From NCBI RefSeq assembly GCF_003334255.1, contig NZ_QOWU01000171.1: a stretch of DNA of 1,217 nucleotides, one strand, 5' to 3'. Each line of letters starts with the position of its first letter. The stretch's first letter is position 1. The translations under genes were made by a program, and so were the position numbers. The notes beneath the pieces are model-generated. The model saw nothing but the letters and a program-made list of their open reading frames with translations, had not been told where the DNA came from and made no database searches. This DNA comes from Escherichia coli (GTDB taxonomy: Bacteria > Pseudomonadota > Gammaproteobacteria > Enterobacterales > Enterobacteriaceae). This document shows, in pieces, positions 1-1,217 of the stretch.

Positions 1-893
1 GCGCTGATTATCTGCTGCAGCATTTCTGCCGGTTTTTCGCACGGATGTTTCCCGGGATAGTACTGCACCGGTTTATGCGTCCACACATCGGTGTACGGCA
101 CCTGCACCGTCACACCAAAATACCGCCGCAGATGCTTATATTCACTCTGCAGTTCCGTATACTGCCGGTTCAGTTCACTGTATGTGCTGACCAGTTGGTG
201 ATGTGGCTTTTCCAGTTCTCCGCGCTGATGCTTCTCTTCTGCCACCCGGGCAAACAGCGCCTGTAATTTCAGATAATCGCTTTCGTCCGGTAGCTGCCAC
301 TGGCTGGCACTGAACCAGTGCGACACCATGTTTTTCTTTCCTGTGGCATCAGCAATCTGTTTTGCCGTTATCCCCAGGGCAGCACGCGCATCACGAAAGT
401 AAGAAATCAGCGGGGCCATCACATGCTGTTTCAGTGCCCTGCCCTTCGCCTCATACCCGGCATCTTTCGGGCGATACGGCCCCTGATAATGTTCCGCGAA
501 CAGAATGCGCTCTGTGGCGGGGAAATATGCCCTCAGGCTTTCCTTGTTGCACCCGTTCCAGCGTCCGGACGGCTTCGCCCAGATAATATGGTTCAGCACA
601 TTGAAGCGTTCACGCATCATGATTTCAATGTCAGACGCCAGGCGATGGCCACAGAACAGGTAAAGACTTCCGGCAGGTTTCAGCACCCGCCAGAACTGCG
701 CCAGACACTGGTCCAGCCATTTCAGGTAATCATCGTCGCCCTTCCACTGGTTATCCCAGCCCTCAGGCTTCACTTTAAAGTACGGCGGGTCCGTGACTAT
801 CAGGTCAACAGAATTTTCGGGTAACGACCGGATAAATTCCAGGCAGTCGGCGTTGATTAACTCACAACTGGATATTTTTACAGTATTAAGCAT
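1..893 (-). CDS. DNA methyltransferase, beta-class (motif IV before motif I), probably N6-adenine-specific; 3' end truncated by the window edge (297 codons visible). Start ATG at 893..891.
   Basis: Reverse-strand translation from ATG 893..891 is open for 297 codons to position 1 with no stop, and an in-frame TGA lies two codons upstream of the ATG. Residues 30-38 read DLIVTDPPY (DPPY at 780..791), the catalytic motif IV of amino-MTases. Residues 283-288 read HPCEKP (30..47), matching the HPxxKP element that in YhdJ/M.RsrI-type enzymes sits just before the FxGxG AdoMet motif, which would lie beyond position 1. The three plus-strand ORFs in the track are antisense to this frame. Confidence 0.9.
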   Translation of the reverse strand, partial: MLNTVKISSCELINADCLEFIRSLPENSVDLIVTDPPYFKVKPEGWDNQWKGDDDYLKWLDQCLAQFWRVLKPAGSLYLFCGHRLASDIEIMMRERFNVLNHIIWAKPSGRWNGCNKESLRAYFPATERILFAEHYQGPYRPKDAGYEAKGRALKQHVMAPLISYFRDARAALGITAKQIADATGKKNMVSHWFSASQWQLPDESDYLKLQALFARVAEEKHQRGELEKPHHQLVSTYSELNRQYTELQSEYKHLRRYFGVTVQVPYTDVWTHKPVQYYPGKHPCEKPAEMLQQIIS

Positions 894-904
894 GGATCAT
901 TAAG

Positions 905-907
905 CCT
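905..907 (-). promoter_or_regulatory. Weak candidate Shine-Dalgarno (AGG) for the methyltransferase, with a long 11-nt spacer to the ATG.
   Basis: Minus-strand sequence upstream of the ATG is GACAGGCTTAATGATCC-ATG. The only purine-rich SD-like triplet is AGG at 907..905, and its spacing is longer than optimal. Confidence 0.25.
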
Positions 908-925
908 GTCTCTGATAGGCTCATT

Positions 926-944
926 CTGCTTTTGCGCAAAGCAG
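926..944. promoter_or_regulatory. Imperfect 19-bp palindrome CTGCTTT-TGCGC-AAAGCAG in the methyltransferase leader; candidate operator or RNA hairpin.
   Basis: Seen directly: 926..932 ctgcttt is the exact reverse complement of 938..944 aaagcag, with a 5-nt centre tgcgc. It lies 33-51 bp upstream of the methyltransferase start codon. No T-tract follows on either strand, so it is not a terminator. Confidence 0.3.
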
Positions 945-1029
945 TGGGCCTGAGGTTTGCTTGTGATCCGGACGCATGAGCAGATGGCTGGTGAGTGCCC
1001 CTAACACCCACCAGCCGCCCATTTACCAC

Positions 1030-1057
1030 AAATAAAAAAGCCTTCACTGCGGAAGGC
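1030..1057 (-). terminator. Rho-independent terminator on the minus strand: 6-bp stem GCCTTC (1057..1052), 6-nt loop, stem GAAGGC (1045..1040), then TTTTTTATTT (1039..1030).
   Basis: Seen directly: plus-strand 1030..1057 is aataaaaaag-ccttc-actgcg-gaaggc, whose reverse complement gives a perfect 6-bp GC-rich stem followed by six T then ATTT. The stop codon of the upstream gene (1046..1044) sits inside the loop and 3' stem. There is no T-tract on the plus strand, so it is unidirectional. Confidence 0.6.
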
Positions 1058-1217
1058 GTCTGTAACAACCGAACTGATAGTCTGCCAGACCCGCCATAAC
1101 CAGCTGGGTCAGTATTAACTGGCAGCGTTCGCGTGAAAGGTAAGTATTCTGCGCAATCTCCCCGACTGTCGCCGGTTCGGTGGCACTTAATTCATTAAAC
1201 ACCACTCTGGCGGTTTC
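1044..1217 (-). CDS. 3' end of an upstream gene (57 codons visible plus TGA stop at 1046..1044); hypothetical protein with a winged-helix/HTH-like C-terminus, possibly a phage replication or regulatory protein. 5' end lies outside the window.
   Basis: Reverse-strand frame entering at 1217 is open for 57 codons (ETARVVFNELSATEPATVGEIAQNTYLSRERCQLILTQLVMAGLADYQFGCYRRLPQ*). The composition looks protein-like, with an HTH-like pattern (TVGEIAQNTYLSRERCQLILTQLVMAGL). The stop is immediately followed by a hairpin plus T-tract terminator on the same strand. Function is inferred only from the motif pattern. Confidence 0.55.
   Translation of the reverse strand, partial: ETARVVFNELSATEPATVGEIAQNTYLSRERCQLILTQLVMAGLADYQFGCYRRLPQ

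Follow-up and report, generated by a model that had tools for sequence, protein, structure and literature searches.

The window analysed here, a stretch of 1,217 nt of Escherichia coli DNA, carries on its minus strand the start of a gene for an adenine methylase of the M.EcoGII family, preceded by the end of a small gene. Very probably, the methylase gene stands second in a lambdoid Q-dependent late operon, without a promoter of its own and read from the late promoter pR' past two intrinsic terminators (T1 and T2) upon antitermination by Q. Its position, downstream of Q and followed by late genes, is what assigns it to the head of the late operon. Q, pR' and T1 lie outside the window and no locus that was fetched is 100% identical to it, so that this context is taken from relatives at 95–99% identity.

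The methylase gene starts with an ATG at 893..891 on the minus strand, according to the ORF list and translation, and its first 297 codons (1..893, minus strand) run off the window; the full-length protein is annotated in relatives with 352 residues. The translation is that of a beta-class N6-adenine DNA methyltransferase, with matches to phrog_67/6025 and PDLC03265 MTase_II. Over the part encoded in the window, 284 of 297 residues (96%) are identical to M.EcoGII, the reference sequence of which was taken from the supplement of PMC11551740. A DPPY motif is located at residues 35–38, within the window, and the C-terminal FxGxG motif, in a part of the gene that falls outside the window, was found as FMGSGS in a full-length relative; the high identity and these two motifs place the protein in the M.EcoGII family. 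Adenine is methylated in any sequence context by M.EcoGII (PMC5778455), and from this enzyme, in which it was shown, the same sequence-nonspecific activity is predicted for the window allele. A restriction-modification or defence system was considered and rejected, as no cognate nuclease or partner adjoins the gene, the neighbours being a winged-helix gene and tRNA genes; for this region PADLOC returned only generic MTase_II models.

M.EcoGII and its paralogue M.EcoGI are prophage-borne enzymes of E. coli O104:H4, neither of which is expressed in the lysogen, and their constitutive expression harms the cell (PMC5778455). Phage 1720a-02, named in the same study as the carrier of a very similar enzyme, is also the phage that matches the window best (96.4% nucleotide identity). 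That study gives no mechanism for the silence in the lysogen, and its text contains neither 'terminator' nor 'upstream'. Two terminators combined with the lack of a promoter would explain why M.EcoGII-type methylases are silent in lysogens, and the arrangement of T1, small gene, T2 and leader is also present at loci with a methylase 98% identical to M.EcoGII.

Sequences matching the window were found in 2,325 of 5,426 complete E. coli genomes (about 43%), with up to seven copies per genome, and in 40 phage records, mostly of Stx2-converting phages, at no more than 96.4% identity. IMG/VR was scanned with the methylase protein, and the fetched set comprised 149 loci. The nearest relatives reach 99.3% identity at the nucleotide level (a prophage of E. 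coli G1/2, hereafter L003) and 100% at the protein level (locus L006). In L003 a DUF968 gene, RusA and an antitermination protein are followed, after a gap of 226 nt, by a gene of 65 codons and the methylase, and subsequently by tRNA-Ile, tRNA-Arg, cargo, a SASA esterase, holin, lysozyme, lysis protein (spanin) and terminase. The order in the Stx2a phage Stx2_95 (L001) and in phiP27 is the same as in L003, with stx2AB after the tRNA genes. More generally, L003, the Stx2 phages and about 150 IMG/VR loci share the order rusA, Q, pR', T1, small gene, T2, methylase and tRNAs, followed by stx or other cargo, lysis genes and terminase; co-oriented holin, lysozyme, spanin and terminase genes were found downstream in L001, L002 and L003. 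In Stx2_95 there is also a strong terminator-like site (AGGCUCGCUUUUGCGGGCCU + U5, L001 10689..10718) between the tRNA genes and stx2A; counting it, the terminators that separate pR' from the toxin genes would number at least three.

The original prediction, made from the window alone, had pointed to the flanking genome as the place to look for an N- or Q-type antiterminator, and in the relatives a co-oriented Q-family gene is indeed located immediately upstream. The gene order in these relatives identifies Q as the relevant antiterminator and tR' as the relevant terminator. The Q protein is of the Q-lambda type (PF03589) in L003 and of the Q21 type (PF06530) in Stx2_95, and other loci carry Q genes of the PF06323 and DUF1133 types. 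In most loci the Q gene ends 560–590 nt upstream of the methylase ATG.

A lambda-like late promoter follows the Q gene in the nearest relative. Positions 8756–8798 of L003 align with lambda pR', with a -35 hexamer TTGATT (TTGACT in lambda), an extended -10 element TGgTAAATT, and at +1..+9 a pause element AACGATGGG that is identical to that of lambda. Sigma-70-dependent pause elements of this type are where lambda Q engages the polymerase. With a position weight matrix (PWM) this promoter scores 11.8 bits, compared to 12.9 bits for lambda pR'. Promoter and pause element were assigned from this alignment in L003, and the promoters belonging to the other Q types were read by eye. Transcription in L003 is predicted to start at 8790, with the methylase ATG 535 nt downstream and two intrinsic terminators in between. 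The terminator scan also flagged L003 8784..8800, where the first nucleotides transcribed from pR' can fold into a small hairpin with UUUUAU behind it, overlapping the sigma-dependent pause element.

The first and stronger of the two terminators, T1, consists of CCCGCCGCCUGGCGGG followed by U6 (-12.6 kcal/mol) and is located about 45 nt after pR' and about 330 nt upstream of T2; the RNA terminated there is predicted to be about 63 nt long. Since it lies directly behind a lambda-like pR', T1 corresponds to tR', and T2 is a second terminator in tandem. The IMG/VR loci for which 640 nt or more upstream were available, approximately 75, all carry a terminator of the T1 type near position -490, whatever the type of Q, with stem sequences that vary among loci. 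Terminators between pR' and the late genes are therefore represented by T1 in all these loci and by T2 in the window itself. In three relatives the sequence becomes alignable exactly at T1, which marks a mosaic joint between the Q/pR' modules and the downstream region. At least four unrelated Q types (PF03589, PF06530, PF06323 and DUF1133), each with its own promoter region, are joined to this common downstream sequence (L001–L149, positions -1300..-490). T1, small gene, T2, leader and methylase form one cassette, which recombination has joined to different Q/pR' modules.

T2 is the terminator contained in the window. Its hairpin (1040..1057, minus strand; GCCUUC-CGCAGU-GAAGGC), identified by terminator scan and by folding, overlaps the stop codon of the small gene; in the DNA, the arms GCCTTC (1057–1052) and GAAGGC (1045–1040) enclose the loop CGCAGT and are followed by TTTTTTATTT (1039–1030), corresponding to a U-tract UUUUUUAUUU (1030..1039, minus strand) that is conserved in the main allele. 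A short stem of 6 bp with four G-C pairs, followed by U6AU3, has the sequence characteristics of an intrinsic terminator. The RNA folds at -8.9 kcal/mol (z = -2.3), and a variant with an AGUCCU loop at -10.5 kcal/mol. Scan and folding therefore agree with the original prediction that a hairpin with T-tract at 1030..1057 (minus strand) ends the upstream gene. Terminator-like sites are no more frequent in the window than in shuffled sequence (two found, 1.3 +/- 0.9 expected), and T2 is judged to be real because it stands where a gene ends, on the coding strand, has a tract of six U residues and recurs at -164 in close relatives. Termination at T1 and T2 would be expected from the established biology of lambda. 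None of the publications consulted describes T2 or reports expression of this methylase after induction, and a look for Term-seq or in vitro data on the T2 site found none.

The position of T2 was surveyed in 81 loci, of which those that extend about 200 nt or more upstream are informative. It was found at -164/-165 from the methylase ATG in every such locus except the Stx2c-type L004, and its stem is invariant across six loop variants among close relatives with enough upstream sequence. Two diverged lineages differ: in the L091-type lineage T2 is degenerate (-4.9 kcal/mol), with an interrupted U-tract UUUUAAUUU, and in the Stx2c (L004-type) lineage a different hairpin (-11.7 kcal/mol) covers the stop codon of the small gene and is followed by a poor U-tract with the tail UUUCCUGCU. 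Degenerate or devoid of a U-tract in these two lineages, T2 cannot be essential; as it is not universal, T1 represents the constant barrier and T2 a common but dispensable second one. Elsewhere, the conservation of T2 is partly due to coding constraint and to the overall identity of 95–99% in the region. The stop codon TGA (1046–1044) of the small gene sits within the 3' arm of the T2 stem, and all alleles share this overlap. The stem would be covered by a ribosome that completes the small ORF, so the efficiency of T2 may vary with the coupling of translation and transcription, and may be lowered by a ribosome terminating on the in-stem stop codon.

Between T2 and the methylase ATG lies a leader of 136 nt (894..1029, minus strand), which is highly conserved, with 35 distinct variants from the 149 loci. 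No sigma-70 promoter above chance was detected in it: the consensus scan gave zero sites in the whole window, and the best PWM score in the leader was 4.46 bits, compared to a shuffle maximum of 6.27 +/- 2.05 bits, a score equalled or exceeded by 80% of the shuffles. The matrix was calibrated on lambda pR' and on the late promoter of the close relative L003 (12.9 and 11.8 bits, as above). The original prediction had found no convincing promoter in the leader, which the two scans, at or below the level of shuffles, bear out; its best candidate, TTGCGC-16-TATCAG (912..939, minus strand), had been called weak and at 2.37 bits is not credible. Its description of the ribosome-binding site as weak is equally justified. 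The Shine-Dalgarno (SD)-like sequence, GAGACAGG (905..912, minus strand), has its AGG 11 nt from the ATG and gives the best anti-SD duplex in the region -20..-1, at -3.3 kcal/mol, a value reached by 40% of random 20-mers from the window. It is partly paired in a small hairpin (923..899; -8.6 kcal/mol), which is not conserved in leaders of the phiP27 and Stx2c types.

On the plus strand, a promoter-like sequence TTAACT-16-TACAGT at 857..884, within the methylase coding sequence, reaches 8.7 bits, roughly the top score that 2.4 kb would yield by chance. A hairpin resembling a terminator overlaps the methylase start at 903..921 and pairs better on this strand than on the sense strand. Together these would yield an RNA of about 45 nt, antisense to the start codon and SD of the methylase. 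Leaders of the phiP27 and Stx2c types have not kept this hairpin, and with a chance-level promoter score this antisense RNA was rejected as probably a chance occurrence.

We propose that transcription would start at pR', a constitutive promoter close behind the Q gene, and that in the lysogen the polymerase would stop about 60 nt later at T1, the tR' of this locus; any polymerase escaping T1 would meet T2 at the end of the small gene. In lysogens of Stx phages, pR' is indeed constitutive and its transcription terminated at tR' (PMC7547250). Upon induction, Q would load onto polymerase paused at pR' and render it resistant to terminators, giving a single late transcript that would extend through T1, small gene, T2, leader, methylase, tRNAs and cargo (stx2 in Stx phages) to the lysis and morphogenesis genes. 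By analogy with lambda, expression of the genes downstream would require Q. The weak ribosome-binding site would keep translation of the methylase low even after induction. As a result, a non-specific adenine methylase that is toxic to the host would be made only during replication and packaging of the phage DNA. The original prediction had already proposed that expression depends on antitermination and is confined to induction, as is to be expected of a gene that has no promoter of its own and lies behind an intrinsic terminator; the silence of M.EcoGI and M.EcoGII in the lysogen (PMC5778455) agrees with this. Its comparison with delayed-early genes behind tR2, a class under the control of N, is contradicted by the gene order.

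Directly after T2, the leader contains a long conserved RNA stem-loop (976..1022, minus strand), identified by folding and alignment and composed of an inner stem of 14 bp (1016..986) and an outer stem of 6 bp; no U-tract follows. This helix folds at -26.9 kcal/mol (z = -5.1), and the leader as a whole also folds better than shuffled sequences (z = -3.05). All 35 leader variants retain it, even those without T2, and in the alignment 19 pairs are kept with three broken cells, variation at three adjacent pairs being limited to G-C/G-U or U-A/U-G. A covariation test on the 35 variants revealed zero double compensatory changes and one-sided G-U changes only. That the variants keep their pairing solely through G-U fits an RNA element of the sense strand, and suggests a function of the helix as RNA. 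It could serve as a site for RNase III, as a stabiliser of the mRNA or, in the form of DNA, as a palindromic operator GGCTGGTG-N15-CACCAGCC. A search of the window and of the region from Q to stx of a relative against Rfam, at permissive thresholds, gave tRNAs and chance-level hits only.

These properties raise the possibility, compatible with control by Q, that the leader RNA adds a post-transcriptional layer, in which the helix of about 20 bp (1022..976) would act as a site for RNase III or as a stability element, and the weak, partly paired SD would hold down translation of a toxic enzyme. We regard this as possible, if somewhat unlikely. The great stability of the helix, its presence in all variants and the restriction of changes to G-U pairs tolerated in sense RNA speak for it; the sequences are, however, closely related, so that conservation of the helix is weak evidence, double compensatory changes and an Rfam match are both lacking, and the small hairpin at the SD is not conserved. 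It is doubtful that a dedicated multi-layer lock on the methylase, separate from Q, is built from T2, the leader helix, the winged-helix protein and an SD that is both weak and partly sequestered. The parts of such a lock might include a T2 efficiency set by ribosomes, processing by RNase III, and binding of the winged-helix protein to GGCTGGTG...CACCAGCC or to methylated DNA.

The small gene is represented in the window by its 3' part of 57 codons and a stop codon (1044..1217, minus strand; ORF list), and its start lies 24 nt past the window end. The full-length product has 65 residues, as annotated in L001 and L003 (8977–9174), and the gene always precedes the methylase in the relatives. The protein matches phrog_331, a family of unknown function, and has only weak TrmB/MarR matches in Pfam; a sequence search against the PDB gave nothing significant. 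Its AlphaFold model (pLDDT 90) has an H-H-H-beta-hairpin winged-helix fold that matches the winged-helix domains of IclR/MarR and other proteins, and on this model it is a winged-helix domain that stands alone. Possible roles are those of a regulator, of a methylase partner or of a protein that reads methylated DNA. The allele of the Stx2c lineage is only about 50% identical (49% by tblastn, 52% in the alignment), and accompanies a diverged methylase.

With terminators on both sides, a better SD (-5.3 kcal/mol) and a conserved upstream region of 120 nt, the small gene has some features of a moron with its own promoter, in which case T2 would mainly end its transcript and insulation of the downstream gene would be incidental. 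Morons do occur at this spot in relatives: between Q and T1 an extra gene encodes a lipoprotein in L004, a GIY-YIG nuclease in phiP27, and membrane proteins in L026 and L032. We nevertheless consider this distinctly improbable, as no promoter-like site could be identified between T1 and the small gene in either L001 or L003, and the best PWM score in this spacer (6.89) does not stand out from the shuffle maximum (6.66 +/- 2.0). As neither consensus nor PWM scans revealed a promoter of its own, the small gene was not classified as a moron.

Sequence scans may miss atypical or non-canonical promoters, and a weak promoter of this kind in the leader would lead to low constitutive, or separately regulated, expression of the methylase. 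Candidates are an extended -10-like sequence TGgTAAATG (1028..1020) and its counterpart TGtGAAAAT in leaders of the Stx2c type. Directly after the U-tract of T2, the 10-mer TGTGGTAAAT followed by GGGCG copies both ends of the -10/pause region of pR' in L003 (TGTGGTAAATTTGCCCTAACGATGGGCG), and the Stx2c-type leaders carry a better extended -10 element (TGTGAAAAT). In the window, however, TGgTAAATG has a G at -7 and no -35 hexamer, and its PWM score of 1.86 bits is far below the shuffle maxima; moreover, M.EcoGI and M.EcoGII leave the DNA of the lysogen unmethylated (PMC5778455). A promoter in the leader is thus very unlikely. Compared with TGTGGTAAAT-TTGCCCTAACGAT-GGGCG in L003 (8773..8800), the window sequence TGTGGTAAAT+GGGCG (1016..1029, minus strand) looks as if the middle 13 nt had been deleted, and this copy may be a relic of recombination or a dead copy of the promoter.

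The remaining alternative, which follows from the comparison with tR2 in the original prediction, would make the methylase a delayed-early gene that has a tR2-like terminator in front of it and is reached by N-type antitermination of transcription from pR; a terminator and a missing promoter fit any scheme of processive antitermination, but this one is extremely unlikely, since in all loci with enough flanking sequence the cassette is located downstream of Q and pR' and never between the replication genes and Q (the nin region of N-dependent delayed-early genes), late genes follow it, and the nearest relative has a canonical lambda-type pR' with pause element 535 nt upstream of the ATG. The analogy with tR2 does not hold for a cassette that is placed after Q and the late promoter and before tRNAs, cargo, lysis genes and terminase. 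In lambda, N-modified polymerase from pR runs past Q and gives some Q-independent late expression, and such polymerase could make a minor contribution to expression of the methylase.

The methylase of the window has in common with M.EcoGII the prophage setting and, over the 297 residues in the window, 96% protein identity. The proposed control by Q provides a concrete and testable reason why methylases of the M.EcoGII type stay silent in lysogens while the phage can still draw on them. Enzymes of this type are widely used reagents for chromatin footprinting, and M.EcoGII, which acts on adenine in DNA and RNA, is sold as such. In Stx2 phages, both terminators and the methylase are located between pR' and stx2, so that variation in T2, which may be present, degenerate or without a U-tract, could affect basal read-through into the toxin genes.

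The arrangement closely resembles the late control region of lambda. In both, Q is encoded upstream, a constitutive promoter (in the nearest relative with the identical pause element AACGATGGG) is soon followed by a strong intrinsic terminator, the late genes lack a promoter of their own, and a second terminator is present in tandem; tandem late terminators in lambda were reportedly described by Luk and Szybalski in 1983. There are also differences: a terminated RNA of about 63 nt is predicted here, compared to 194 nt for the 6S RNA of lambda, the winged-helix gene, the methylase and tRNAs are inserted between tR' and the lysis genes, and the second terminator overlaps a stop codon.

Another parallel is the pR'-tR' unit of Stx phages, which gives rise to the sRNA StxS (Sp5/Sp15, 933W type; PMC7547250). 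It occupies the same position in the genome, its pR' is always on, transcription stops at tR' in lysogens, and read-through by Q allows expression of tRNAs, stx and lysis genes; the cassette itself is often carried by Stx2 phages. In contrast, phages of the 933W type lack both the methylase and the small gene in the interval from tR' to the tRNAs, and their terminated transcript is 258 nt long and processed to 74 nt (PMC7547250). The region studied here matched no Rfam family. In the late operon of the P22-like phage L, predicted Rho-independent terminators are found within an operon with a single antiterminated promoter, with proposed but uncertain roles in stopping unmodified polymerases or in trimming the downstream mRNA (PMC8022706). 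The terminators of phage L are situated among virion genes, whereas T2 is located at the very start of the late operon, before a toxic enzyme. As a whole, the arrangement is ordinary textbook lambdoid late-gene control.
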